The notes under the pieces are model-generated. The model was not told where the DNA came from, ran no database searches, and saw only the letters and a program-made list of their open reading frames with translations. From assembly GCA_049976305.1 (NCBI GenBank), contig JBMFIM010000001.1, positions 25,712-89,711 of the forward strand: a DNA stretch of 64,000 nucleotides, read 5' to 3'. A program made the position numbers and the translations under genes. Positions 1 through 52,387 of this stretch are shown here, one piece after another. This DNA is from Candidatus Micrarchaeia archaeon (lineage in GTDB: Archaea > Micrarchaeota > Micrarchaeia > Micrarchaeales > CABMGC01). The number at the start of each line of letters is the position of its first letter. The first letter of the stretch is position 1.

Positions 1-1035
1 GCCACCTGTACCTAATTTAAGAACAGGTATGGGCAAAGGAACAGGCATGCCTGCCTTTTTCAGCCTTTCCAAAGCGATATAGTCAAACGGCGCGTGGGCT
101 GGCACGCTCATCACTATCCCTGTGCCCAGATCAGGCTTCACGAAGAAGCCGTGGTACACTGGGACCTTTACTCCATTCACTGGGTTTATGCACTGCTTTT
201 CTATGAGCTCCTGCCCGCTAAGCTCTTTCAACACACTTATCTTTAGCTGGAAGCCCAAAATGTAGCTTGCCTCTTTGGAGATATAGAAGCTTCTTTCGTC
301 TTCGCCAATTTTGCAAAGCACGTACTGGCTATCTCTGTTGACAAAAATATTGGTTACACCGAATACCGTCTCAGGCCTGTAGGTAGCACAGAGCATATAT
401 GCATCTTCTCCATCAACCTTGAACGCTATCGCCACCTCTTCCTCGATCTCCGGCTCGACATCATGCAAGGTGTCGTGCATTCCAACAGGGTTATTTTCAT
501 TAGGGCACCAGCCGACTGCATGCTTTCCTTGGACAAGAAGATGCTTGTCGTTGAGTATTCCGAACTGCCACTCTACAAACTTGCTGAAGAAGGGTTCTGT
601 AGAAACAAACTTCCTCCTGAAGTCTATGCTTAGGCCAGACCTCACAAAGCTTGCCTCGCTGTTTTTGGTGAAGTATTCTGTTATGTAAACAGGGTCTGTC
701 ATCTTTGCAATGTCTTCATCAGGAATATGGAAAAGTTTGAGCTCTTTTATAATTTCCTGGTCGTTGTTTTTTATGCGCTTTGCAAATGCAAGCACAGGAG
801 TTCCGGTAGCGTGGAAGCCCATAGGGAAAAGAACGTTGTATCCTTGCATGCGCTTGTACCTTGCCAGTGCGTCAGTAATGCTGTATGTTCGCAAGTGGCC
901 GATGTGCAAAGGTGTGTTGACATAAGGAAATGCTGCAAAAACCATATAGGCTGGCTTGTCGTTCGGCTCTACCTCAAATATCTTTGCTTCTTGCCAATTC
1001 TTTTGCCATTTTTTCTCTATGCCTGCAAAGTCCGT
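1..1035 (-). CDS. leuS: Leucyl-tRNA synthetase, archaeal type, N-terminal ~345 codons (gene continues past left edge)
   Basis: The minus-strand frame is open from 1059 to the window edge and is absent from the ORF track because it is truncated. My translation gives ...DFAGIEKKWQKNWQEAKIFEV..AFPYVNTPLHIGHLRTYSITDALARYKRMQGYNVLFPMGFHATGTP..RPETVFGVTN..MSVPAHAPFDY, which shows the class I HIGH motif and archaeal LeuRS blocks. I set the start at ACG 1035..1033 (see finding). The first ATG is at 945..943. Confidence 0.9.
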
Positions 1036-1081
1036 AAAACCACTAGAAAGAAAATGCCGTTAAAGATTAATAAAGCAAACG

Positions 1082-12955: not shown

Positions 12956-14002
12956 CTAGAAGATACTCCTACCTTGCTTTTTTGCTACGCGCCTCGCAGT
13001 AAGAACCATTAAAATAGATATGAGAAAACCCAGCAAAACTAGCAATGAGCCAAAGTATGCGTTCTTAGCAATAAGGCTAAGCCCTAAAGCGATTGCTATA
13101 AAGGAAAAGATGGGGGGTATTGCAGGCAAACCTATTTTGTATGTCTTGAGCAGATACATTGTAAATACAAGGCCCAGCGATGCACCCACCGCTATTACCA
13201 CAGCGAAGAAGTAGCTTGCGAATGAAAAGTAAGCGCTAACTGCGAGCATAAGCGGCATTGTCAAATCACCAGTCCCCAAAGCAGTTTGTGTAGGCACCGG
13301 CAAAGCGCCTTGTCTTATTGCCTGCTTTATCTGCTTGCTCCTTATTTTTGCCTTGGCAAGCATCTTCTTGAGCTCTTTGATGCTCCTTTTGCTGAGATAA
13401 GCCTTAGGCACCAGCTCTACCTCAGAAGAGCCTACAAGCAAAGCCATGTTTCTATCTACCGCCTGCTTGCCCAATGCAAGCATGTGTTTTGTTACAAAAA
13501 CCGCCACGTAGTCATAGGCTGCTATTATCATCATAAAGACAAAGGCGACAGTAAAAGGAAGAAAGCCAAGCACTATTCCTGCACCCAAGCTGGCGATTAT
13601 TGCAACCTCGTTTCTCAGCCAAGGCTTCTTATATTTCGCAATCATAAGCAAGACAGGAAGGGCTATTGAAGCTGCCACTACTTCTGGCACGTATGCCTGT
13701 TGCGGAAATATGCTGCCAAGGATTATTAGGAAAAGGTAAAAGGAAGCAATTACTACTATTACACCTTCTATTATCGCATAGATCGCCGCACCGTGGTAAA
13801 ACTTGAAAATTAGCAAAAGAAATACGGTGCCGGCAAGCACATAAAGAAAAAACCAAAGTGCATCAAAAGAGGAAGCCTGCTGCGCAGGCACCACTGCTAT
13901 CGGTGGCAAAAAGAAGAATACTATCAGCAAACCGAGAAACTGGACTAAGAGGAAAAGAGATACAATGTAAACAAGCTGCCTGTATTCTATTATTCTCTCC
14001 AT
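12956..14002 (-). CDS. Presenilin / signal-peptide-peptidase homologue (GxGD intramembrane aspartyl protease)
   Basis: It is polytopic. AAYDYVAV gives the YD motif, ALGTGDLTMPL the GxGD motif, and LPAIPP a PAL-like motif. Confidence 0.7.
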   Translation of the reverse strand: MERIIEYRQLVYIVSLFLLVQFLGLLIVFFFLPPIAVVPAQQASSFDALWFFLYVLAGTVFLLLIFKFYHGAAIYAIIEGVIVVIASFYLFLIILGSIFPQQAYVPEVVAASIALPVLLMIAKYKKPWLRNEVAIIASLGAGIVLGFLPFTVAFVFMMIIAAYDYVAVFVTKHMLALGKQAVDRNMALLVGSSEVELVPKAYLSKRSIKELKKMLAKAKIRSKQIKQAIRQGALPVPTQTALGTGDLTMPLMLAVSAYFSFASYFFAVVIAVGASLGLVFTMYLLKTYKIGLPAIPPIFSFIAIALGLSLIAKNAYFGSLLVLLGFLISILMVLTARRVAKKQGRSIF

Positions 14003-16065
14003 TACTCTGCCTCATGCTTTACTATCTTGAGCTCCCCTGGCTTTGGCATATAAACATCTCCGCTCCTCTCGAGCTCGTCAAGATATTTTATTGCCGTTTG
14101 CCTGTCTATTCCTATTTTTTCAGCTTCTTCAAGCACAGCGGTAACCTTTGCTGTTTTCTCCTTTTCTTCAAGCTCCTTTATGATGTTCATCAGCGCGTTG
14201 ATCTTATCTACTTTCTCTTTCGGCATGCCTGTTTGCAAAATGTCAATGTCCCTCCTTCCACTTCTATCAACGGCAAGTGTGTTAAGCATATACTCAAACA
14301 AAGATATGGCAACATCTGCGTCTCTGCTGGTAACCACAGGCGAAAGCCTTGCTTTAGCGCTGGCTTCTGCAAGCCTAACAAGGCCTTCTATTTGCCTGGG
14401 CGTTATTGGCGTTACGCCTTGCTTTAGCCCAAGCTTCCTGAGCTCTATGTAATAGTTCGCTATTCTATCGCTCGCTTCTCTAAGCAACCTAGGCTTTATG
14501 TTTTTCCTTGCGTAGGCTATGTATTTTCTCAACAGCTCAGGGTCTATAGGCGGAGCTGCGACCTGTTCGTATGCTTCAACTTGCTCGAGCTGCGCACCTG
14601 CTGCTTCATGCTGAACAAGTATGTGCTTTGCTATGTTTCTGTCAAGCTCCTCATCCATAAGATCTGCTATTGGGAAGATTAGGTCAAACCTTGAAAGCAA
14701 CGCTGGAGGTATGTCAAACTGCTCAGAAGGATAGATGTTCTTTTCAAACCTCCCAAACTTCGGGTTTGCTGAAGCTAGAATTGAGGTTTTCGCGTTGAAC
14801 CTAGCAACTATGCCGGCCTTTGCCACACTGATAGTTTGCGACTCCATAGCTTCCAGAAGGCCTGCTTTGTCTTCGTCGCTGATCTTATCGAACTCGTCTA
14901 TGCATACAGTACCTCCTGATCCTAAAACAAGTGCCCCGGCCTTGAGCGTCCAGCCGCCTTCGGAAAGCTCATCCCTCTCTGCAGTAGCTGTAAGACCTGC
15001 TGAGCTTACAGACTTACCGCTTACATATATTCCCTTCGGCACTATGCTAGAAACTGCCTGCAAAAGCCTTGTCTTGGCTGTTCCAGGATCGCCGATGAGA
15101 AGAATATGTATGTCGCTTCTTATGAGCCCGCCATCAACAAGGCGCTTGTCAGGAGTCCCGCCAAACAGCTGCAGCACTATTGCCTTCTTTATCTCATCAT
15201 AGCCGTAAATTGAAGGGGCAATGGACTTGGCCAGCTTATCAAATATGAGTGGATCCTTCGCAAGCTCAATTATCTTGGCTTCTTCCTCTGGTGTTATTTC
15301 AAGTTCAGCAAATTCTTTCTGTTTTGGCTTAACCGACACGGCATCCAAAAACATAGTAAATACAGACTTTTCCTGCTTACCCCTGCTAGTAATTCTAGGC
15401 CTTATTCGCAAAATTCCAGTAATGTCCGCCCTATCGCCGGGCAAGACGCTATTTACAAGATCATCCTGAAGCCAAATTTCCATATGAAGATTAGGCACAT
15501 TGCCCTTAAGCTTTTCGAGAGGGTCTTGTATTTCCAGCTTCTGCAGGTCTATGAATTGTGACTCCTCAGTAACTTGCTTTAGTGATCTGTGCTTGCATTG
15601 TGGGCAAACCTCAGGCACTTCTTCATGCTCTATGTCAAGCTTTACTACCGCCCCGCAGACATTGCAGCGAAATACACCAACGTGAACCTTTGGCATTATC
15701 TCTGAGCGCTTTGTAATTAGCGAGTCTATGGTGAGGAGCTTCCCTATTTCGTCAGAGCCGACATCCTGTAAGAGCGGCGCTGCGGAGGGGTCCGAGTTAA
15801 AGAATCTCACATACAAGGGCTTTGCAGGGTTGGGTGCAGGATTGAGCTTGGCGAGGGCTTCGTTTGCGGCAATAATAACAGGGTCTGGGTTGTTTAGCAG
15901 TTCCTGCGCAAGCTCATGGTCAAACCTCTCCAGGTCTACGATATCTACATAAAGCGACCTTTTCTGGGGGTAAACAATAAGCAAGTTTTTAATCTGCTCA
16001 GAATAGTAGGTATTGAGAAACTCGAGGAGCCTGTCCTCATACTCTCTGGCAACCACTGCTTCCAT
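14002..16065 (-). CDS. mcm: MCM replicative helicase
   Basis: It carries a Zn motif (CNVCG..CPQC), Walker A (IGDPGTAKTRLL), Walker B (CIDEFDK) and an arginine-finger region (SRFDLIF). AGGGGA + 3 nt precedes the ATG at 16065, while the ORF opens at 16110. Confidence 0.97.
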   Translation of the reverse strand: MEAVVAREYEDRLLEFLNTYYSEQIKNLLIVYPQKRSLYVDIVDLERFDHELAQELLNNPDPVIIAANEALAKLNPAPNPAKPLYVRFFNSDPSAAPLLQDVGSDEIGKLLTIDSLITKRSEIMPKVHVGVFRCNVCGAVVKLDIEHEEVPEVCPQCKHRSLKQVTEESQFIDLQKLEIQDPLEKLKGNVPNLHMEIWLQDDLVNSVLPGDRADITGILRIRPRITSRGKQEKSVFTMFLDAVSVKPKQKEFAELEITPEEEAKIIELAKDPLIFDKLAKSIAPSIYGYDEIKKAIVLQLFGGTPDKRLVDGGLIRSDIHILLIGDPGTAKTRLLQAVSSIVPKGIYVSGKSVSSAGLTATAERDELSEGGWTLKAGALVLGSGGTVCIDEFDKISDEDKAGLLEAMESQTISVAKAGIVARFNAKTSILASANPKFGRFEKNIYPSEQFDIPPALLSRFDLIFPIADLMDEELDRNIAKHILVQHEAAGAQLEQVEAYEQVAAPPIDPELLRKYIAYARKNIKPRLLREASDRIANYYIELRKLGLKQGVTPITPRQIEGLVRLAEASAKARLSPVVTSRDADVAISLFEYMLNTLAVDRSGRRDIDILQTGMPKEKVDKINALMNIIKELEEKEKTAKVTAVLEEAEKIGIDRQTAIKYLDELERSGDVYMPKPGELKIVKHEAE

Positions 16066-16193
16066 ACTTCCCCTATTAGATTGATTTGAACAGTTATTTA
16101 AATGTTGCAAATGCGGCTCTTTGTATTTGCCTCCTCCCTGATCGAGAAAAGATATTTTAAAGTAGAAGTCAAAAATTTTAACGAGGTGGGGAG

Positions 16194-18824
16194 TTGCCTA
16201 GCGTTGCAGGCTCTACCGAAGATGCTATAAATAATGCTGCATCTGCAGAAAAAACGTCTGTATTTCTTGTAGGCGAAGCTGGCGGCGGACTAATTTGGTT
16301 TGACAAGGACAATTGGATTGGCCTATACCATATTTTGAAAGAGAGAATATTGGCAAAGAATGCACCGGCCGCGATAATTTTCCATGGCGAGATACTGCCT
16401 GCTTTGCCAAAATATATAACAAAAGGTGGTTACAGTAAGAGCCAACCTCTGCAAGAAGACATAAACAGCCTGGACCTGGCAGTAGTGCAGGTAAAGCCAC
16501 ACTTATCAAGGATAGCAAAGCTGGCAAAAGAGGAAGGAATTGAACTGTACTACGTAATGGGCCCAAGCGACAGAGACAATATTGCCCGAGAACACGACAT
16601 GCTAGTGAGAATTTATACCAACTCTCCGAAAGACTTACTACAAATGATTGTAAGTATAAGGGAAAAAATTAGAGCGAATAACAAAATAATCGAGACTACA
16701 GAAAAAATAATGAAAAAGGAGCTTGAAAAAACCACACAGAACACGAGCAAAATCCAAAACATGCAAGAAAAGATTAGGCAGCTAAAAGAGGAAAACGAAG
16801 ATTTTGAGAAGCTTGATCAGCTTTATATCAAGCTTGTAGAACTATGGCTAGAAGAACATCCGGGCGAAGCTGAACAAGATAAATCTTTGAACCCTGAAGA
16901 GAAAGGTGACATCTCTAGGCTTGTCAACGAAATTAGAGGAAGAGGCATCGAGAAAAGTGAAATAGAGAAGAAAATAGAGGAACTGACTAGGGAGCTGGAG
17001 AAAACAGACAAAGACAAAGAGCCTGAAAAATACAAGCAGCTAGATGAAGAAATAAAAAAGCTCAACAACGAGCTAAAGAAAGGAACGTACAAAGACATTA
17101 GAAAAACTAAGCAGAAAGCTGAAGAAGGCGTATTCAAAAGGGAGAGACCTGGAGAGCTTTATACAGGCCACTACGCGGGATCAAAAGAGCTAGATGCGCT
17201 TGCGTTTGAAATAGCCAATGCGTATATTGCGCTCAACATACGAAATGCGTTTGGAAGGAGAATAAATATACAAATACTTCCTGAGCTGGTAAATGATATA
17301 GCTATAAAAGGGCACGCTTTTAGAGTCTCTGACTTGCCTTCCGAAGCATCAAGAGAGTATCTTTCTGTACAGAACTATTTCAAGGCTCTAGTGCAAGGGC
17401 TAACAGGCACGACAATAGTCACTATGGCGCACACAACTTCTTACCATGTTGATACAGTTCCACCATACAATGATGTAAGGAAAAATACGGGAGTAGTATA
17501 TGAGGTTGCGGTGCCGCCAATTATAGACGGAGAAAAAGTCAAAGATGCTTGGAGATCTGGCATTAATACCCCGCTTACAAAAGCCGTAAAGAAAGGCAAA
17601 GGAGTAACTACAGGATTTGTAGAGGTTACTTTTGACAGTAATGGCGTAAAGACAACATATTATTCATATGAATTCTTGCATCAGAAGGCAGGTGAAGAAT
17701 ACAATATACAAAGAGAGATTTTGAACAAATTGCTGAGGGGCAATGGCAACAATATTACAGAAAAGCCTAGCATAGAAGACAAAATCCAGATCCATAACAA
17801 GTTGCCTGAAGAGATGAATAAGCGCCTGATCCAATTGGCCAAAAAATATTTCCCGGCCGCACTGGCGTTACCCAGTCATGAGCAGGGAGAAACGCGCCGC
17901 TTGGATGTTTTGATGGTAAATGATACGCACATCGGCACTGCTGGCTATGGTGAAATTACTACTCGCCGCATGCTCGATGCCCTGGCTAAAAAACTAAAGG
18001 AAATGGGGTTTAGCATTGGCCTACTTTTCCTTGGAGGGGACAACATCGAAGGCGCCTATAAGGCTATAAAATATGAGAAGTACGAAGGGCGTGACATACG
18101 TGGTATATATCAGCTGAAAGGCGGCGCCCTAAGGATTAAATACGAAGCTTGGTTGCAAGAGCATCAGCCCATACCGAGCACGAATGACCAAATCGCAGAG
18201 CTAGTGAACAACATAAAGCCATTGCTAAGATCTGCTAAAACAATACTGCTTGTTTCGGGCCAACACACTAACAAGACCTACCCTGACAAAACAATAGATG
18301 AAGCCACTGCAATAAGGGATGCGTTGTTGCCTATTGCTTCTAAATACGGCGTACGCGAAAAAGACATCATTGCAGTGCCAGGCGGAGACAAAGGAGTTGG
18401 AGCGGTAAGACTTGACGATGGTACTACCATTTTTGTCGCACATAGTTTGCCTAACGGGTTACGATTTCCCAACGAAACAGTATTGGCGCTAGGTGCGGAT
18501 AAGCATCAGCACATAGTTGATGTAGAAACCGACCATGGCGGGCATATAATTGTAAAAACAACGGGCGCTTCTTCTTCGCCGATTACCCACTTTGTTAACC
18601 AGATAGGCATATCAACAAGTCAGTCAATGAGGGGCTTTACTACCGTTTCTGCAGAGTACGGAAACAGAACTCACATACTTCATAAGCTTGAAACATACTT
18701 CATATCACTAGACGACCTGATGCCATTAATAAGAAAAGGATTAGAAAGAGATTTTGGCAAAGAAGACCTGGAAAGGCTTGAAAAATTTGAAGAAGGGCGG
18801 ATTACAATAAAAGCAAGCAGTTAA
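16194..18824 (+). CDS. Large orphan protein: degenerate N-terminal and better-preserved C-terminal metallophosphoesterase-like modules with a central K/E coiled coil
   Basis: The TTG start is preceded by GAGGTGGGGAG. The C-terminal module has NDTHIG (~17922), GGDNIEG (~18033), SGQHTN (~18255) and DKHQH (~18498), which resemble MPE motifs I, II, III and V. The N-terminal module has the same spacing with substituted residues (VGEAGGG, FHGEIL, MGPSDRD). About 180 aa of heptad-like K/E sequence span ~16640-17190. Confidence 0.6.
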   Translation: MPSVAGSTEDAINNAASAEKTSVFLVGEAGGGLIWFDKDNWIGLYHILKERILAKNAPAAIIFHGEILPALPKYITKGGYSKSQPLQEDINSLDLAVVQVKPHLSRIAKLAKEEGIELYYVMGPSDRDNIAREHDMLVRIYTNSPKDLLQMIVSIREKIRANNKIIETTEKIMKKELEKTTQNTSKIQNMQEKIRQLKEENEDFEKLDQLYIKLVELWLEEHPGEAEQDKSLNPEEKGDISRLVNEIRGRGIEKSEIEKKIEELTRELEKTDKDKEPEKYKQLDEEIKKLNNELKKGTYKDIRKTKQKAEEGVFKRERPGELYTGHYAGSKELDALAFEIANAYIALNIRNAFGRRINIQILPELVNDIAIKGHAFRVSDLPSEASREYLSVQNYFKALVQGLTGTTIVTMAHTTSYHVDTVPPYNDVRKNTGVVYEVAVPPIIDGEKVKDAWRSGINTPLTKAVKKGKGVTTGFVEVTFDSNGVKTTYYSYEFLHQKAGEEYNIQREILNKLLRGNGNNITEKPSIEDKIQIHNKLPEEMNKRLIQLAKKYFPAALALPSHEQGETRRLDVLMVNDTHIGTAGYGEITTRRMLDALAKKLKEMGFSIGLLFLGGDNIEGAYKAIKYEKYEGRDIRGIYQLKGGALRIKYEAWLQEHQPIPSTNDQIAELVNNIKPLLRSAKTILLVSGQHTNKTYPDKTIDEATAIRDALLPIASKYGVREKDIIAVPGGDKGVGAVRLDDGTTIFVAHSLPNGLRFPNETVLALGADKHQHIVDVETDHGGHIIVKTTGASSSPITHFVNQIGISTSQSMRGFTTVSAEYGNRTHILHKLETYFISLDDLMPLIRKGLERDFGKEDLERLEKFEEGRITIKASS

Positions 18825-23983: not shown

Positions 23984-24806
23984 ATGCTCGCTCCGATTCA
24001 ATATATCTTTGCAATTATTTCTGGAGTGATTGTTGGATTTTCGCTAGGCTTAATAGGAGGAGGCGGATCTATTCTCGCAGTTCCCTCTTTCTTTACTTTG
24101 TGGGCTTAGATCAATGCCAGACGCTGTACATATTGTTGTTGGCACTACTGCACTTGCAGTGGGAATAAATGCCTATATTAATTCCTATATGCATTTGAGA
24201 AAAAAGAATGTGGCAATAAGAGTAGGTGGCCTGTTTGCAATAATTGGCATTTTTGGCTCCTTGCTGGGCGCGTATCTGGGAAGAATAACTCCTGGCACAG
24301 ACTTGCTTACTTACTTTGCAATCAGCATGATAGTGCTAGGCATTTATATGACTCTAAGAAAAGAGCCTACATTTACAGGAACCAAGGAGGAAGCATTGAG
24401 ACTAAGAAAAGCTACACAAAAATACCCAAAGCTGAATGCAAAGAGTGCGGCTAAGGTAAGCGCATTGGGATTTATTGTAGGCGTGGTTAGCGGATATTTT
24501 GGAATAGGAGGTGGCTTCTTAATAGTACCTTCGCTGATGTTTTCTTCTGGGCTGTGCATAACAAGGGCCATAGGCACCAGCTTAATAAGCGTTGGTAGCT
24601 TTGGAGTTGCTAGCGGTCTAGAATATGCTGCATTTGGAGATGTTCTTTTCATGGTTTCTCTCCTTTATATCGTTGGAGGAGTAGGCGGCGGCTATCTTGG
24701 AACTTCGCTAGCTGTAAAGGCGCCTAAGAAAGCCTTGCGAATAGCATATGGAATAATTATTGTACTTGTTGGAATTTACATTCTTTTCAAGGTCGGTGTA
24801 TTCTGA
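23984..24806 (+). pseudogene. TauE/SafE (DUF81) family anion exporter, reading frame broken once (+1) near 24100
   Basis: The ATG at 23984 gives ..GFSLGLIGGGGSILAVPSFFTLWA then a stop at 24107-24109. The rest (..GLRSMPDAVHIVVGTTALAV.. to 24806) is in the +1 frame (track ORF 24114..24806). Together the two parts form one normal-length TauE protein. Confidence 0.65.
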
Positions 24807-24854: not shown

Positions 24855-25691
24855 CTATTCGACAAGCGCAAAAACATCTTTTCTGTTTTCGGTCACATCG
24901 CCCTGCTCAGCCAACAGGTAGAGCGTCCCTCTTATCGCTTCCTCATCCTGATGCAACAGGGTTGCAAGCTCACTCACTTTCTTGGGCCCGTTCTTTAGCT
25001 GCTTGACTAGTTCAGTTCCAAGCTTGTCAAAAAACGACTTCATGAATATGTAGTACTTTTTGTTGAACGCCCTTGTACCTATAACTTGGCCCTGCCTTAT
25101 GCTTTCAGACACCGCCATTGACAAAGCGGCAGCTTCAGCCTCTGTAGGCAAAACAACATACCCTTTGCTCTCCAGCGCTTTTACATTCTCGTTTTCTATG
25201 CCGGGCTTCACTTTAAGCAACGTCGGCTCGACTTCCCCCCATGCACGAGCCTGGTCTATCTCCTCCTTCTCCTTTGGCTTTTTCCTCAACAAGAAGGTAT
25301 CGTAAACATGCTTTGAAATGCTGTAAAGCTTCTCCTTCCTCTTTTCATCGTTGTATAGCACTACTGCTTTCTTAGCGATTAGACTTGACAAAACCTTCTT
25401 TTCGCTCTCGTTAAGCAAGCCCGCTACCCTTTGCTCGGTTCTTGAAGGATATCTAATAGTATCTAACTTTTTGAGAACGTCAAGTTCTTCTTTTGTGAAT
25501 TCTCCGGGCTCTGCAGATGGCTGACTAGAGGAGAGCAGTGACACTACATCTTCCTTCTTTGCAAACAAAAATGCGTTATCGCTAAACTTGAAAAAATCAA
25601 CCTCGTCGTTTTGGTTAAGGTGAAGTTGCGCGACAACATCATAGGGGATGTAGATTAAGTATTTGTTATCCTTTTTGTAGACCTTTACCGT
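24855..25691 (-). CDS. Putative DNA-binding protein: AbrB/SpoVT-like N-terminus and C-terminal winged helix
   Basis: The track ORF is 24855..25568 with a TTG start. The frame stays open to 25703 and encodes TVKVYKKDNKYLIYIPYDVVAQLHLNQNDEVDFFKFSDNAF, which looks like a swapped-hairpin domain. GGGTG + 5 nt precedes the in-frame ACG at 25691. The C-terminus GPKKVSELATLLHQDEEAIRGTLYLLAEQG is wHTH-like. Confidence 0.55.
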   Translation of the reverse strand, partial: TVKVYKKDNKYLIYIPYDVVAQLHLNQNDEVDFFKFSDNAFLFAKKEDVVSLLSSSQPSAEPGEFTKEELDVLKKLDTIRYPSRTEQRVAGLLNESEKKVLSSLIAKKAVVLYNDEKRKEKLYSISKHVYDTFLLRKKPKEKEEIDQARAWGEVEPTLLKVKPGIENENVKALESKGYVVLPTEAEAAALSMAVSESIRQGQVIGTRAFNKKYYIFMKSFFDKLGTELVKQLKNGPKKVSELATLLHQDEEAIRGTLYLLAEQGDVTENRKDVFALVE

Positions 25692-25701
25692 ATGGACACC
25701 C

Positions 25702-25709
25702 TTTTAAAA
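25702..25709 (+). promoter_or_regulatory. TATA-box-like element for nnr (leaderless start at 25730)
   Basis: TTTTAAAA is centred about 25 nt upstream of the ATG at 25730. Confidence 0.3.
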
Positions 25710-25729
25710 TGTATTCTACGTTATATGGT

Positions 25730-27262
25730 TGTATGCAAGACTTAAAATGGTTTTCTAAATTCACAAAACAGACGCTTAGTTCAGAAGAAATGAAAGTAGT
25801 GGAACTTAATGCTGAGAATCTGGGAATTACTGAGTTGCAAATGATGGAAAGCGCAGGCAAAGCAGTGGCAGACTTCGTAGAACAGCATTTTAAAGACAGG
25901 AAAAACCTACTTGTGCTATGCGGCAGCGGCAATAATGGTGGCGATGGCTTTGTAACTGCGAGATACCTTAGCAAAAACCATAATGTTGTAGTTGGGATCG
26001 CTGGTGGTAGGGAGAAGATAAAAGGGGCTTCTTCCCTTATAAACCTGAAAGCGCTCGAAGCTTGCGGAGTGGAACTAGTAGAAAATGTAGAATATGAACT
26101 TAGAACGCGGCTTGACCATGCAGACTTAGTAGTTGACGCTTTGGTAGGGACAGGATTCCACGGTTCGCTGAGAAGCCCTCTAAAAGAGATAGCTAGAATG
26201 TTAAACAATTCGAAAAAAGAGGTAGTGGCGATAGACCTTCCATCTGGGCTCGACGCCACAACTGGATATGAGAAAGAAGCGGTAAAGGCTACATATACAG
26301 TAACATTCCATAAAATGAAAGAAGGCCTGCTAAAATCTAAAAAGGCAGGGAAGATTGTTTGCTCAGATATAGGAATACCGCTAAAGGCTGAAGTTTTTAC
26401 CGGACCTGGAGATCTGTGGAGGGCAGTACCAAAGAAAGAGCTGTTTGATAATAAACTTAGCCATGGACGAGTCCTAATATTAGGAGGCAGTGAAGAGTTT
26501 TACGGCGCGCCTTCAATGGCTGCGATTGCTGCGTACAACGCGCTTGCTACTTTAAGGTCTGGTGCTGGCTATGTCGTATTAATGGTACCTAACTCTATTC
26601 TGAAAGTTGCTAGAGAAGTGTCTCCCAACTTAATAGTAAGAGCTGCAGGAGAAGACTATATTACAAACCTAAAAGCCATAAAACAAGAGATAGACAAAAG
26701 CAGCGTAATAGGAATTGGAATGGGAATAGGGCGTAGCATAGAGGTTCTTGAAGCCACAAAAGAAATCATAAAATACGCACTTGATAAAAACAAAAGGCTT
26801 GTAATAGATGCGGATGCACTCTACGCCTTGGGAAGAAGCCCCTTAAACAAGAATGCCGTACTCACTCCTCAGGAAAAGGAGTTTGAAACTCTTTATGGAA
26901 GAAAGCCTGAGGCAGAGATTGATAAAAGGGTAAGACAAGCAATCAAACTTGCCAACACATTAAATGCAGTAGTTGCATTGAAGGGTCATATTACTGTAAT
27001 AACCGATGGAAAGCAAGTAAAGCTTAATGAGACAGAAACTGCTGCACTGGCGACCATGGGAACCGGAGATGTGTTAACAGGTATTATTGCAGGTTTTGCA
27101 ACTAATAACGCTCAATCAATGTTCAACATTACAGCAGGAGCCATATATCTCCATGGAAGAATTGGAGATGTATTAGCAAAAGAGAAAGGGACGCACATAC
27201 TAGCTAGTGATCTTATAGATCAAATTCCACTCATAGCTGCGCAATATAGTGCTGTGGTTTGA
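25730..27262 (+). CDS. nnr: Bifunctional NAD(P)H-hydrate repair enzyme Nnr (YjeF_N epimerase + ADP-dependent dehydratase)
   Basis: The N-domain has LMESAG..CGSGNNGGDGFV. The C-domain has GGSEEFYGAP...GTGDVLTGIIAGF. The ORF opens at 25709, and ATG 25730 fits the TATA spacing. Confidence 0.9.
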   Translation, partial: CMQDLKWFSKFTKQTLSSEEMKVVELNAENLGITELQMMESAGKAVADFVEQHFKDRKNLLVLCGSGNNGGDGFVTARYLSKNHNVVVGIAGGREKIKGASSLINLKALEACGVELVENVEYELRTRLDHADLVVDALVGTGFHGSLRSPLKEIARMLNNSKKEVVAIDLPSGLDATTGYEKEAVKATYTVTFHKMKEGLLKSKKAGKIVCSDIGIPLKAEVFTGPGDLWRAVPKKELFDNKLSHGRVLILGGSEEFYGAPSMAAIAAYNALATLRSGAGYVVLMVPNSILKVAREVSPNLIVRAAGEDYITNLKAIKQEIDKSSVIGIGMGIGRSIEVLEATKEIIKYALDKNKRLVIDADALYALGRSPLNKNAVLTPQEKEFETLYGRKPEAEIDKRVRQAIKLANTLNAVVALKGHITVITDGKQVKLNETETAALATMGTGDVLTGIIAGFATNNAQSMFNITAGAIYLHGRIGDVLAKEKGTHILASDLIDQIPLIAAQYSAVV

Positions 27263-34828: not shown

Positions 34829-35224
34829 CTAATCGGGCTCGAACTTGTATTGGTAATAAATAAGGCCTTCGTCTCCTTCTTTGTATATGCGCCTTAGCAC
34901 CGCCCTTACCCTTGTGCCAATCTGCACTGGCTTGCCATTGTCAACAATATGCCCTTCCACGATCGGTCCTTCGTCTAGCTTTATCAGCGCAACGGTGTAT
35001 GGAGCTAAGTCCTCAAAGCCGTCTGGAGGCGAGCGAATTATTGTATATGAGTAAATTTCGCCAGTTCCTTTGAACCTTAGGTCTTTCATCTTTGAGTTTC
35101 TGCCGCAATTCCTGCACACTAGCCTTGGCGGAAAGTATTTTGCCCCGCAATTTTCGCACATATTGCCCAGGAGTATGTACCTAGACCTTACTTTTCTCCA
35201 CAAATCAGCAGGAGACTTTTCCAT
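34829..35224 (-). CDS. DUF35 OB-fold/zinc-ribbon protein (scaffold of the archaeal thiolase/HMG-CoA synthase complex)
   Basis: It has CENCGAKYFPPRLVCRNCGR and an OB-fold C-terminus. AGTGG + TTTT precedes the ATG. Confidence 0.85.
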   Translation of the reverse strand: MEKSPADLWRKVRSRYILLGNMCENCGAKYFPPRLVCRNCGRNSKMKDLRFKGTGEIYSYTIIRSPPDGFEDLAPYTVALIKLDEGPIVEGHIVDNGKPVQIGTRVRAVLRRIYKEGDEGLIYYQYKFEPD

Positions 35225-35231
35225 AAAACCA

Positions 35232-36395
35232 CTAATTTACGCGCTTAAGTATGTGCACAACGGCAGTTGCACCGCTACCGCCGACGTTGTGTGTGAGCCC
35301 AATTTCTGCGCCATCTACTTGCCTACCTTCAGCCTCTCCCCTTAGCTGCCAAGTAATCTCAACCGCCTGCTTTATTCCTGTAGCACCTACAGGATGCCCG
35401 CAACCTTTAAGTCCGCCGCTGGTGTTGACAGAAACATCGCCGTTTATTGCGGTTCTGCCTTCTTCTATGGCTTTTGCCGCCTCGCCTTTTTTGAAAAAGC
35501 CTAGGTCTTCCATTGCAATTATCTCCGCTATAGTAAAACAGTCATGAACCTCTGCCACGTCTATGTCCTTTGGCGTTACCTTTGCATGCTCATACGCCTT
35601 CTGGCTTGCGATCCTTGCTGCCTTTATGCTGGTAAGGCTCTCTCTGTCTGCCAGCCTCAGGGTATCGCTTGCCTGCTCGCTTGCTGCTATCAGTACCGGC
35701 GTATCGTTGTATTTCTTTGCAACCTCCATCGGAGCCAGCACTATTGCGGCTGCACCATCGGTAATTGGCGAGCAGTCAAGAAGTTTCAGAGGGTCTGCAA
35801 CCATCTTTGAATTGAGCACATCATCTATCGTTATGCGCCTGTGGAACTGGGCGTATTTGTTGTGGTAGGCGTTTTCATGATTCTTTACTGCTACTGCTGC
35901 CATTTGCTCCTCAGTAGTACCGTATTCGTGCATATGCCGCCTTGCCATGAGGGCATACAGGCCTGGGAATGTTAGACCTTGGAAGAGCTCCCATTCTTGA
36001 TCCCCAGCTCCGCCTAGTGCAGTTGTGGCTTCGCCTGTGCTTACATCTGTCATTTTCTCAACTCCGCCTACAACCACTATGTCATGGAGGCCGCTGGCGA
36101 CCGCCATGTAGCCTTGCCTGAGTGCCGTACCGCCGCTGGCACACGCATTCTCAACACGCGTAGCAGGTATGTTGCCAAGGCCGAGCTGATCAGCCATAAG
36201 CGCTGCAACGTGCTCTTGACCTATGAATCTGCCTGGTGTCATACTGCCACCATAGATGGCATCAATATCCTTGCTGGATATGCCTGCATCTTCCAAGGCT
36301 GCAAGTCCGGCTTCAGCCATAAGCTCCTTTATTCCTGATTCCCATCTTTCACCAAACTTTGTAAGACCAACGCCTATAATTGCCACATCTCTCAT
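35232..36395 (-). CDS. Acetyl-CoA acetyltransferase (thiolase)
   Basis: [11 protein letters not shown] contains the active-site Cys. The C-terminus has [24 protein letters not shown]. Confidence 0.92.
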
Positions 36396-46292: not shown

Positions 46293-46384
46293 GCTGCCTT
46301 TTGTAATTCTTTCAGTATTTATAGTTTGCCTTTTAGCTTTTAGGAGATCAAAAACATAATAAAGGTTATTTTGTTTACCATATT

Positions 46385-47664
46385 GTGCGGGGCTACTACG
46401 AAACAGAGCACATAACTAAATTCGTCTGGCTTGTCACCTTATTCTCCTCCATGGGCATGTTCATGGATGGCTACGTGCTTACTATATTCTCCGCTGCCAC
46501 TGCTTTGCCTACTGGTCTGAAATATGTTTTCAAGCCGACAAGTTTGGAATGGGGACTCATGGGTGCGGCTCCACTCATCGGCATGCTGCTTGGGGCTGCT
46601 ACTTTTGGCAACATCGCTGACAGGATAGGCAGAAGAAAAATGTACATTTATGACCTTAGTGCAACTGCGTTGTTCTTGCTTCTCACTGCATTTTCGACCA
46701 ACTGGCTTGAGTTTTTCCTGCTGCAGCTTGGCGCTGGCGTAGGCATTGGCGCAGATTATCCGATAAGCTCCTCTATCCAGGCAGAGTTTTCACCTACGAA
46801 AAGGCGCGGCATGCTGCTTGTCCTCAACATTTTCATGTAGACTTATAGGCAGCATTGTTTTCCTGCTTGTCTCGATTCCCCTCTATTTTGTAGGCAATGT
46901 TGCATGGAAGCTAATGTATGGCACTGCTGCAATAATTCCCTTGATTGTTGTAGCTGCAAGGAACACAATTCCAGAATCGCCATGGTGGCTCAAGCTTAAA
47001 GAAAAGAAAAAGGAGTTTGAAAAATCAGTTTCGATAATTGCGGCCTCAGTCGGCGTGCTGCCGAGTAGGCTTGCGGAAAGCATAAAGCTGGAAAAGGGCA
47101 AAAGCAGCAGCATGGTTTGCTTATGATGTTGCTAGCTATGGCGTTTGGACCTTCACACCGTCTATTTTCATAAGCACAGGAAGCAGCTATGTTGGGTCGA
47201 TTATTGCTGACTTGCTCGAAGAAGTGCCTGTCTTTATAGGATTTGCTTTATGCGTAACTCTTGTTGATAGAGTAGGTAGGGAGCCGCTCGAAGAATATGG
47301 ATTCTTGCTGGCAGGCATATCCTTGCTAATCTTTGCAGCATATGCGCATTTTACAAAGGAAACGCCATTTGCTATTGCCTTCGTAGGCTTTGCGCTTATG
47401 CACGTATTCCACAACCTAGGGCCTACAAACCTCACATATACATATCCAGCAGAGGCGTATCCTACGAGGCTTAGGGCTACGGCACATGGCTTTGCTACCT
47501 CGTTTAGCAGAATCGGAGGCATTCTTGGCATAGTGGCTTTTCCAGTGCTTCTCAATTCCCTCAGCCTATCGGCGGCGCTAGTGATGTTTGCAGCCTTTGA
47601 ATTCCTGGGATTCACAGTTACTGTTTTGTGGGCGCCTGAAACGAAGAAAAAAGCCCTTTTTTAA
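46385..47664 (+). pseudogene. MFS transporter (sugar-porter-like) broken by two +1 frame shifts
   Basis: Three consecutive track ORFs (46385..46840, 46818..47126, 47212..47664) lie in frames 2, 0 and 1. Together they read as one ~425-aa MFS protein, with GNIADRIGRRKMY, EFSPTKRRGML, IPESPWWL and YPAEAYPTRLRATAHGF. The junctions fall near 46831-46840 and 47086-47105. Confidence 0.7.
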
Positions 47665-50429: not shown

Positions 50430-50504
50430 AGCGAGGTGGGGTAGTTTGGAGTACCCGCTGGGCTCATAACCCAGAGATCGGTGGTTCAAATCCACCCCTC
50501 GCTA
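50430..50504 (+). tRNA. Initiator tRNA-Met (CAU)
   Basis: It folds as AGCGAGG-TG-GGGT-AGTTTGGAGT-ACCC-G-CTGGG-CTCATAA-CCCAG-AGATC-GGTGG-TTCAAAT-CCACC-CCTCGCT-A. The A1:U72 pair and three G:C pairs closing the anticodon stem are archaeal initiator features. Confidence 0.85.
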
Positions 50505-52024: not shown

Positions 52025-52363
52025 CTATCTTATTTTGCTCCCCGGCCTGACTTCTTTGTTTGGCGTAAGTAAAGATATTATTCCATCATCCTCAGCAGCA
52101 AGCAGCATACCTTGCGATTCTACACCAGCAACATTCTTTGGCTTAAGGTTTGCGACGCAAACAATAAGCTTGCCAACAAGCTCTTCTTCACCATATTGCT
52201 CTCTTATTCCAGCGACTATCGTTCTTGTTCCAAGCTCTTCACCAAGGTCTACTGTAATTATGTACATCGGCTTCTTTGCCTGGTGATGAGGCTCAACCTT
52301 TACAATCTTGCCAACCCGCAGGTCTGCCTTTTTAAATTCTTCTATGTCAATAATGTCAGTTAT
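52025..52363 (-). CDS. tRNA-binding OB-fold protein (Trbp111/CsaA/EMAP-II-like)
   Basis: The track ORF (52025..52267) starts at MYIITVDLGEE. The same frame upstream encodes TDIIDIEEFKKADLRVGKIVKVEPHHQAKKP, which is the conserved first strands of the domain. There is no ATG/GTG/TTG in that stretch. AGGTGG + TTTT precedes the in-frame ATA at 52363 (see finding). Confidence 0.75.
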   Translation of the reverse strand: MTDIIDIEEFKKADLRVGKIVKVEPHHQAKKPMYIITVDLGEELGTRTIVAGIREQYGEEELVGKLIVCVANLKPKNVAGVESQGMLLAAEDDGIISLLTPNKEVRPGSKIR

Positions 52364-52387
52364 AAAACCACCTAATATGTGTTATTC

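Follow-up and report, generated by a model that had tools for sequence, protein, structure and literature searches.

Initiation of translation at codons that differ from AUG by one base is known from several systems. In bacteria, Escherichia coli infC and pcnB start at AUU, and the rare starts of NCBI translation table 11 include ATT, ATC, ATA, and CTG, a set to which ACG does not belong. ACG initiation occurs in eukaryotes and viruses, as for VP2 of adeno-associated virus (AAV) and C' of Sendai virus, CUG starts are also known in eukaryotic and viral genes, and in plant organelles start codons are edited from ACG to AUG. To our knowledge, an ACG start has not been reported for any natural prokaryotic gene, and a search of the full-text literature, with incomplete coverage, found no report of natural prokaryotic ACG starts or of near-cognate starts in Micrarchaeota or other DPANN archaea. 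Here we analyzed a gene on the minus strand of a 64-kb stretch of DNA (the window; G+C content, 44%) from an archaeon that belongs to the Micrarchaeota (DPANN), as judged by the names of homologs and by related contigs. The gene encodes a predicted AbrB-like domain joined to winged helices, and its translation probably starts at an ACG codon behind a Shine-Dalgarno (SD)-like motif. Near-cognate initiation as such and the AbrB fold are already known. What we consider new is a natural and conserved ACG start, as proposed here, in a prokaryote-type SD context, the recurrence of AUH (AUA, AUC, or AUU) and CUG starts across an archaeal phylum together with their co-variation with motif strength, and the loss of N-terminal domains from the public annotations of these gene families.

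Reading frame and proposed start codon of the AbrB-like gene

The open reading frame (ORF) listed by gene callers extends over 24855..25568 on the minus strand, starts at TTG (25566..25568), and encodes 237 amino acids. The preliminary description of this locus held that the same frame is open further upstream, to a TAA at 25704..25706, and that the 45 codons between this stop and TTG 25568 contain no ATG, GTG, or TTG; translation of 24855..25760 and a frame scan confirmed both statements. After the TAA the frame reads KGVHTVKVYKKDNKYLIYIPYDVVAQLHLNQNDEVDFFKFSDNAF and then passes into LFAKK of the called protein. The description had also placed GGGTG 5 nt before an in-frame ACG, and this arrangement is indeed present: the SD-like GGGTG at 25697..25701 (core GGTG, 25700..25697) is separated by the spacer TCCAT (25696..25692) from ACG at 25689..25691, which lies four codons downstream of the TAA, and the spacing is that of canonical starts. 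We propose that the full coding sequence spans 24855..25691 on the minus strand, from ACG 25691..25689 to the stop codon TAG 24857..24855, with 278 codons for 278 amino acids. The peptide DNKYLIYIPYDVVAQLHLNQNDEVDFFK lies within residues 1-41 of the ACG-initiated translation.

We compared the 41 codons upstream of TTG 25568 with the corresponding codons of related loci. Against L002 (84% protein identity), we counted 16 synonymous changes and one non-synonymous change, which gives a ratio of non-synonymous to synonymous divergence (omega) of approximately 0.004, and against L008 there were 12 synonymous and no non-synonymous changes; synonymous divergence in the extension is saturated. The extended translation has 245 homologs at E ≤ 0.001, most of them 265-300 amino acids long and covering 98% of the query, and the extension is intact in all 33 near-cognate orthologs. 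By these sequence comparisons, the 41 codons are translated and under strong purifying selection. No GGTG is found upstream of TTG 25568, and the codon is CTA in L004 and L005. Judged from the alignment, the TTG taken by gene callers as the start is not a real start but specifies a Leu inside the conserved AFLFAKK motif.

The codon aligned with the window ACG was read in 80 fetched species representatives, and start codons and upstream motifs were tabulated for 82 orthologs. Orthologs with canonical starts begin with MVKVFKKDNKY or MKVFKK, and the window reads T(ACG)-VKVYKKDNKY; because the orthologs start MVKVFKK at the same codon, the ACG occupies the orthologous Met position, where the initiator tRNA presumably decodes it as Met. 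A comparison of orthologous 5' ends had been proposed as a check, and the initiator ATG of the orthologs falls exactly at the ACG. At the aligned position, the 80 representatives have ATG (21), ATA (17), ATC (9), ACG (6), ATT (1), GTG (2), or TTG (1), and in most of the others the start is an ATG or TTG at the next codon. Among the 82 orthologs, 34 start with ATG, 11 with GTG or TTG, 33 with ATA, ATC, ATT, or ACG, and two with CTG, so that near-cognate starts account for 35 of the 82 (43%) and canonical starts for 45. In 28 other orthologs the start position is occupied by ATA, ATC, ATT, or CTG, and neither AAG nor AGG was found as a start codon.

The ACG is kept in L002, L005, L008, L010, L011, and L064 and has an independent origin in L059. 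All members of the clade of seven retain ACG and never have ACA, ACC, or ACT at this position; among Thr codons, ACG accounts for only 13% in the window as a whole and for 20% in the gene. Such alignment with the orthologous Met and retention in the clade bear out the earlier view that the SD-spaced ACG is the best start candidate. The surrounding sequence is conserved as GGTGT-N4-ACG-GTA-AAR in L001/L008, L002/L003, L004/L064, L005, and L006/L011, and GGTG-N5-ACG-GTA-AAR is kept in at least six other genomes. In L011 an in-frame TAA stands directly 5' of the ACG, one of seven loci (L011, L015, L041, L046, L057, L061, and L071) in which an in-frame stop immediately precedes the near-cognate codon. 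L009, which starts with ATG, and L064, which has ACG, are 80% identical, and their upstream 12 nt are the same. In a neighbor-joining tree, near-cognate starts occur in at least eight clades and ACG arose twice; the near-cognate state is kept within clades down to protein identities of 39% (ATH), 60% (ATA), and 62% (ACG). The first downstream canonical codon is scattered from +3 to +49 by species, and there is thus no conserved alternative start. By sequence comparison, these results show that near-cognate starts (ATA, ATC, ATT, ACG, and CTG) recur at this position across the phylum.

A canonical start further upstream was considered and rejected, because the in-frame TAA lies four codons upstream in the window and immediately precedes the codon in L011; P0005 and P0007 are called longer, from upstream ATGs that lack conservation. 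In L026 and L047, the TTG start of the closest relatives, located one codon after the ACG-aligned position, is replaced by CTG, and the next canonical codons lie 76 and 18 codons downstream, respectively.

Near-cognate starts and the GGTG motif

The start codon is closely linked to the upstream motif. An exact GGTG at 5 nt precedes 29 of 33 near-cognate starts, 3 of 34 ATG starts, and none of 11 GTG or TTG starts among the orthologs (Fisher p = 2e-11, not corrected for phylogeny), and GGTG in the vicinity is found in 32 of 33, 4 of 34, and 2 of 11, respectively. When the tree was set against the motif table, at least six sister-group contrasts pointed in the same direction and none in the opposite one. 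About 20 canonical starts in the window have GGTG at 4-6 nt, mostly at 5 nt; since GGTG-N5 is the usual geometry of canonical starts and is kept in other genomes, the arrangement at the ACG is not due to chance. The pairing of a weak codon with a strong motif, as against a strong codon with a weak motif, is what would be expected from stabilizing selection on expression.

As a control for spacing, we took the window together with three new loci (L087-89), approximately 110 kb in total, and examined frames of 80 or more codons in which a stop lies within 30 codons upstream with no canonical start in between. Among the frames that open behind GGTG at 5 nt (GGTG+5), 13 begin with a canonical codon, seven with one of five near-cognate codons, and seven with any of the other 53 sense codons, and at all other spacings pooled there were eight near-cognate and 109 other codons (p = 1.3e-4). 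This control is indicative only, because four of the seven near-cognate frames are orthologs of one gene, and it suggests that the enrichment of near-cognate codons is specific to a GGTG spacing of 5.

Approximately 497 kb of orthologous flanks contained almost no other near-cognate starts; these flanks represent only about five gene families, among them YjeF, which starts with ATG and seems to be leaderless. Further near-cognate cases were found in the wider sample of the window and L087-89. The first is a gene for a tRNA-binding protein (PF01588, MetRS-beta/CsaA-like; 52028..52363, minus strand), which would start at ATA 52363..52361 with GGTG at 52372..52369, that is, GGTG+5. Its PF01588 domain begins at residue 15 counted from the ATA, 18 residues before the first ATG (residue 33). 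Behind GGTG+5, the orthologs in L087, L088, and L089 have ATA, ATA, and ATT, respectively, and P0122 has Met exactly at the position of the ATA; six close relatives are N-truncated calls. P0121, an NCBI record of a 99%-identical tRNA-binding protein, is called from another ATA, which lies five codons before this one.

The second case is leuS, which runs off the start of the window (1..1059, minus strand). Its ACG at 1035..1033 is aligned with the initiator Met of MDYKELDAKWQ in the orthologs, and the frame has no ATG, GTG, or TTG from the upstream TAA to the conserved IEKKWQ motif. The preliminary description had seen the same arrangement at leuS as at the AbrB-like gene; the ACG start candidate was upheld, and the exact GGTG was not, as the ACG is preceded by AGTGGTTTT, in which the motif is AGTGG. 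Taken together, the sequence comparisons show leuS (ACG) and the tRNA-binding gene (ATA) behaving like the AbrB-like gene, which is thus one instance of a broader pattern across Micrarchaeota that the earlier reading had not noticed. The AGTGGTTTT context also precedes the canonical ATG of a gene at 34829..35236 (minus strand).

Two other genes with exact GGTG+5 are ambiguous candidates. In a DUF460 protein gene on the plus strand, ATA 31223 lies just past the stop of the preceding gene, and an ATG without an SD motif is located 14 codons upstream. In an ATP-grasp protein gene on the minus strand, the codon before ACG 59769 is a TTG, for which the spacing of 2 nt is poor. Pfam scans of the other ORFs with long open upstream regions gave no further firm cases. 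An 880-amino-acid ORF at 16182..18824 (plus strand) was considered as leuS and rejected: it is not leuS and has a canonical TTG start, with good GGTGG+5, and its 880-residue product has no Pfam match at E ≤ 0.001. It is arranged head-to-head with the MCM helicase gene (14002..16197, minus strand), the open frames overlapping by 16 nt. The start of the MCM gene is uncertain, as the first canonical codon, a TTG, comes 29 codons downstream of the stop and lacks a GGTG at a working distance; GGAGG is located 19 nt upstream.

Initiation model and rival explanations

We propose, with a probability of roughly 80%, that translation of the AbrB-like gene starts at ACG 25691..25689 by SD-assisted near-cognate initiation with the ordinary initiator tRNA. 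In this model, GGTG 5 nt upstream would pair with the 3' end of 16S rRNA and set the ACG in the ribosomal P site, where the ordinary initiator Met-tRNA (anticodon CAU) would accept ACG with one mismatch, so that the protein would begin with Met. A weak start codon with a strong SD motif may then give about the same output as ATG with a weak motif, which would amount to compensatory evolution of the expression level. The initiator tRNA-Met gene in the window (50430..50504, plus strand) has A1:U72, three G:C pairs in the anticodon stem (GGG/CCC), and a standard CAU anticodon and loop; with a normal CAU, this tRNA at least could decode ACG or AUH only if one mismatch is tolerated. When all 64 codons were measured in E. 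coli, AUA, AUC, AUU, CUG, and ACG each reportedly gave measurable initiation, with AUA, AUC, AUU, and CUG at 1-2% of AUG, and an N-terminal Met was found by mass spectrometry for ACG and AUC, the two codons tested in that way (bioRxiv 10.1101/063800).

The promoter region bears on the length of the leader. The intergenic region of only about 41 bp between the AbrB-like gene and the divergent YjeF gene contains two A/T boxes in a criss-cross arrangement, which recurs in orthologous intergenic regions with box centers at about -14 and -32 from the start. ATATAA (25721..25726, minus strand), about 32 nt upstream of the ACG, is a possible TATA box of the AbrB-like gene, and the palindromic TTTTAAAA (25702..25709), about 27 nt upstream of ATG 25733, is a probable TATA box of the YjeF gene. 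The geometry of ATATAA would give a 5' leader of only about 6-10 nt, beginning at or near GGTG; a wider estimate from the A/T boxes is about 6-15 nt. The YjeF protein (NAD(P)HX epimerase/dehydratase) has the conserved N-terminus MQDLKWF and an ATG start in nearly all of approximately 80 loci; it probably starts at ATG 25733, as opposed to ATG 25709 in the ORF list (25709..25735, plus strand). From the distance of about 27 nt to the TATA-like box, the YjeF mRNA is probably leaderless.

Several points weigh against SD-assisted initiation at the ACG. With so short a leader, as judged from the boxes, it is not certain that the mRNA would contain the whole GGTG, which is the weakest point of the SD model, and the 3' end of the 16S rRNA of this organism does not lie within the window. 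Shared ancestry accounts for part of the strength with which GGTG and near-cognate starts are associated, and L010 is an ambiguous locus, with in-frame GTG after the ACG and others before it. Moreover, ACG initiates at only 0.1-1% of the level of AUG in E. coli (bioRxiv 10.1101/063800), and output could be very low.

The N-terminal domain could also be made by another route, that is, a leaderless-type start on a transcript whose 5' end is at or beside the ACG, a second and dedicated initiator tRNA, or a frameshift from an out-of-frame GTG or ATG within or adjoining the GGTG. The A/T boxes at about -14 and -32 imply a short leader, an out-of-frame ATG is present 11 nt upstream in L005 and L011, and one initiator tRNA only was inspected, all of which would suit such a route. 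Leaderless initiation, however, generally has the strictest requirement for AUG, and the tight link to an exact GGTG at the normal 5-nt spacing of the genome argues for SD-guided initiation. A dedicated ACG initiator tRNA was not seen, as the initiator tRNA in the window has the normal CAU anticodon, although a second one may be encoded elsewhere in the genome. We rejected a frameshift because the out-of-frame GTG and ATG frames near GGTG end within 2-5 codons, before or at the start codon (GTG ATT TAA in the ATA clade), and a slippery site is absent. On balance, we regard these other routes as unlikely. C-to-U editing of the mRNA, which would turn ACG into AUG for canonical initiation, would equally account for strict ACG, never ACA, ACC, or ACT, in the seven members of the clade. 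It cannot, however, make AUG from the ATA, ATC, ATT, or CTG of the 28 other orthologs, and near-cognate initiation covers all of these codons by a single mechanism. We are not aware of any description of C-to-U editing of mRNA in archaea, and our literature search found no report of it there; we consider editing very unlikely.

Less credible again is the view that the 237-amino-acid protein is the real product, the ATG having mutated to ACG in this clade with loss of the AbrB domain and a start at TTG 25568 or another internal codon. Every public gene call of the cluster begins at the TTG or is shorter, and in E. coli initiation at ACG is poor. This view is contradicted by the strong purifying selection on the 41 upstream codons (omega of about 0.004), by the extension being intact in all 33 near-cognate orthologs, by the TTG having no GGTG upstream and being CTA in relatives, and by the scatter of the first canonical codon (+3 to +49) between species. 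A sequencing or assembly error concealing a true ATG deserves hardly any weight: the TauE and major facilitator superfamily (MFS) transporter genes of the window are broken by single-base indels, and the assembly may not be free of errors, but the same ACG is present in L007, an independent 1.3-kb contig with only three mismatches to the window in its first 1037 nt, and in L008, L002/L003, L005, L064, and L011, which come from different samples and assemblers.

SD-assisted near-cognate initiation may also extend beyond this gene. We lean slightly toward a relaxed rule by which, in Micrarchaeota and perhaps other DPANN archaea, an exact GGTG+5 lets any gene start at AUA, AUC, AUU, CUG, or ACG, a state that is evolutionarily stable and traded off against SD strength. 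If the rule is true, it would concern several per cent of genes, about 3-5 of approximately 65 in the window, including the essential leuS, and standard gene callers would truncate or wrongly extend such genes. Such a rule could result from altered start-site proofreading specific to the lineage, for example through aIF1, rRNA methylation by KsgA/Dim1, or modification of the initiator tRNA. In both Haloferax volcanii and E. coli, proteins with non-AUG starts are expressed more strongly when the KsgA/Dim1 rRNA methylase is lost (PMC7897474), which makes the modification state of the ribosome a plausible, if speculative, lever for lineage-specific tolerance. As an optional further layer, weak codons may be selected to hold certain DNA- and tRNA-binding proteins at a low level. 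The ACG and AUH starts that co-vary with SD strength provide a natural data set on compensation between codon and ribosome-binding site, open the fidelity of initiation in genome-reduced archaea to testing, and indicate that gene prediction in DPANN archaea should admit near-cognate starts behind strong GGTG motifs.

Protein architecture and comparison with known systems

The preliminary description had proposed that an AbrB-like N-terminal domain is encoded upstream of the TTG, and the Pfam matches of orthologs and the predicted fold support this proposal. The SpoVT/AbrB/MazE-like domain comprises residues 1-45 (25557..25691, minus strand), as indicated by PF04014 matches, an AlphaFold model (mdfbad348a0c1), Foldseek, and omega. 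The window N-terminus alone scored 19.9 bits against PF04014 (E = 7e-4), short of the 24.7 bits that the gathering cut-off requires, whereas 26 of 30 orthologous N-termini matched it at E ≤ 0.01 (best, 8.6e-9), and P0004, P0016, and P0037 have precomputed PF04014 matches. By sequence profile, PF04014 membership is thus established at the family level, the single window sequence being sub-threshold. In the model, residues 1-55 (predicted local distance difference test score [pLDDT], 86) form a beta-beta-alpha-beta-beta fold with strands at 3-7, 10-14, 31-37, and 40-45 and a helix at 17-22. The top 35 or so Foldseek matches of these residues in PDB were almost all MazE, VapB, SpoVT, AbrB, C56/C68, or related proteins of RIFT-fold or swapped-hairpin type, with 1mvf_D at a template modeling (TM) score of 0.74 and a root-mean-square deviation of 1.8 Å and 1ub4_C at a probability of 1.0; the Foldseek E-values are weak (≥ 0.02), the domain being so small. 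When a profile of the N-terminus was searched against PDB sequences, the matches, which included AbrB and SpoVT, had E-values of only about 0.4-1; this search is not decisive on its own. These data support the prediction of an AbrB/SpoVT/MazE-type swapped-hairpin domain in residues 1-45, here modeled as a monomer.

The remaining part, residues ~67-278 (24858..25493, minus strand), is a tandem winged-helix-like region according to AlphaFold, Foldseek, and weak Pfam helix-turn-helix matches. In the full-length model (pLDDT 80.9), the C-terminal ~210 residues are predicted to form repeated winged helices, with three winged-helix-like modules. Foldseek on the whole protein returned the SelB C-terminus, ScpB, UFL1/DDRGK1, ESCRT-II, and MarR-type winged helices, which are generic matches only; their best E-value was only 6e-4 and their TM-scores were 0.2-0.3, so that no specific family membership or function can be assigned. 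The protein had no match to an initiation-factor family (IF3/aIF1-like) in Pfam or PDB searches. A profile search yielded 544 clusters at 50% identity among 1.84 billion representatives, many of which are N-truncated calls. Where labels exist, the combination of AbrB-like domain and winged helices was found mainly in sequences labeled Micrarchaeota, to which the architecture appears mainly specific.

In the 90% cluster of the window protein, all seven members (NCBI, JGI, and ENA) are called with 237 amino acids or fewer and the named ones are "hypothetical protein"; the 278-amino-acid form is absent from a collection of 15 billion proteins. The public records of this cluster therefore show a 237-amino-acid "hypothetical protein" without its predicted DNA-binding domain. 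Many family representatives are N-truncated likewise, and the same holds for leuS and the MetRS-beta-like tRNA-binding protein.

The gene has TauE, Sec61-beta, YjeF, and ArgRS genes as neighbors; it and the NAD(P)HX repair gene (YjeF_N/Carb_kinase), beside argS, form a head-to-head pair, and this synteny is conserved. The TauE/SafE exporter gene (23984..24806, plus strand) is split into pieces of 41 and 230 amino acids by two single-base deletions (near 24082 and 24113) relative to the intact 274-amino-acid gene of the 95%-identical L001, which reflects either a pseudogene or an assembly indel error. Likewise, the MFS/sugar transporter gene (46337..47664, plus strand) lies in three frames that match Pfam Sugar_tr positions 2-144, 163-214, and 276-445, which implies two frameshifts and hence a disrupted gene or an assembly error. 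A reading of the AbrB-like protein as a MazE/PrlF antitoxin, in line with some JGI names for homologs, was rejected because no toxin gene is adjacent and the C-terminus consists of 210 residues of winged-helix modules.

Residues 1-45 share topology and a profile signature with the SpoVT, AbrB, MazE, and VapB domains (PF04014; 1ub4, 1mvf, 2w1t, 1yfb, and 5l6l), and archaeal plasmid proteins C56 and C68 (7xi6 and 3o27) have a swapped-hairpin fold like that of the N-terminal 45 residues. Where the known proteins carry a toxin-binding tail or a GAF domain, the domain is here fused to three winged-helix-like modules, and in contrast to the MazE and VapB antitoxins no toxin gene is adjacent. Repeated winged helices, such as those predicted for the C-terminal 210 residues, are known from the SelB C-terminus (1lva), ScpB (6juv and 3w6j), ESCRT-II (3cuq), and proteins of RNA polymerase III/TFIIE type; the protein described here gives weak matches to these proteins, and we do not claim family membership.

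With regard to the start codon, AAV VP2, Sendai virus C', and plant organelle genes have ACG at the functional start of a conserved protein, as here. However, AAV VP2 and Sendai virus C' need scanning and a Kozak context and plant organelles need C-to-U editing, while the present gene has a prokaryote-type GGTG at 5 nt, and in contrast to the edited organelle starts, sister species use ATA, ATC, or ATT, which are beyond repair by editing. Close parallels are infC and pcnB, in which a codon one base off AUG is used behind an SD motif by the normal initiator tRNA to give Met, as we propose for the AbrB-like gene. Unlike infC, its product is an AbrB-like domain with winged helices and not an initiation factor, and autoregulation in the style of infC is not indicated. 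The present gene also differs from infC and pcnB in being archaeal, in that ACG lies outside the table 11 set, and in that near-cognate starts are kept within clades down to 39-62% protein identity and carry a stronger motif than the ATG-starting orthologs.

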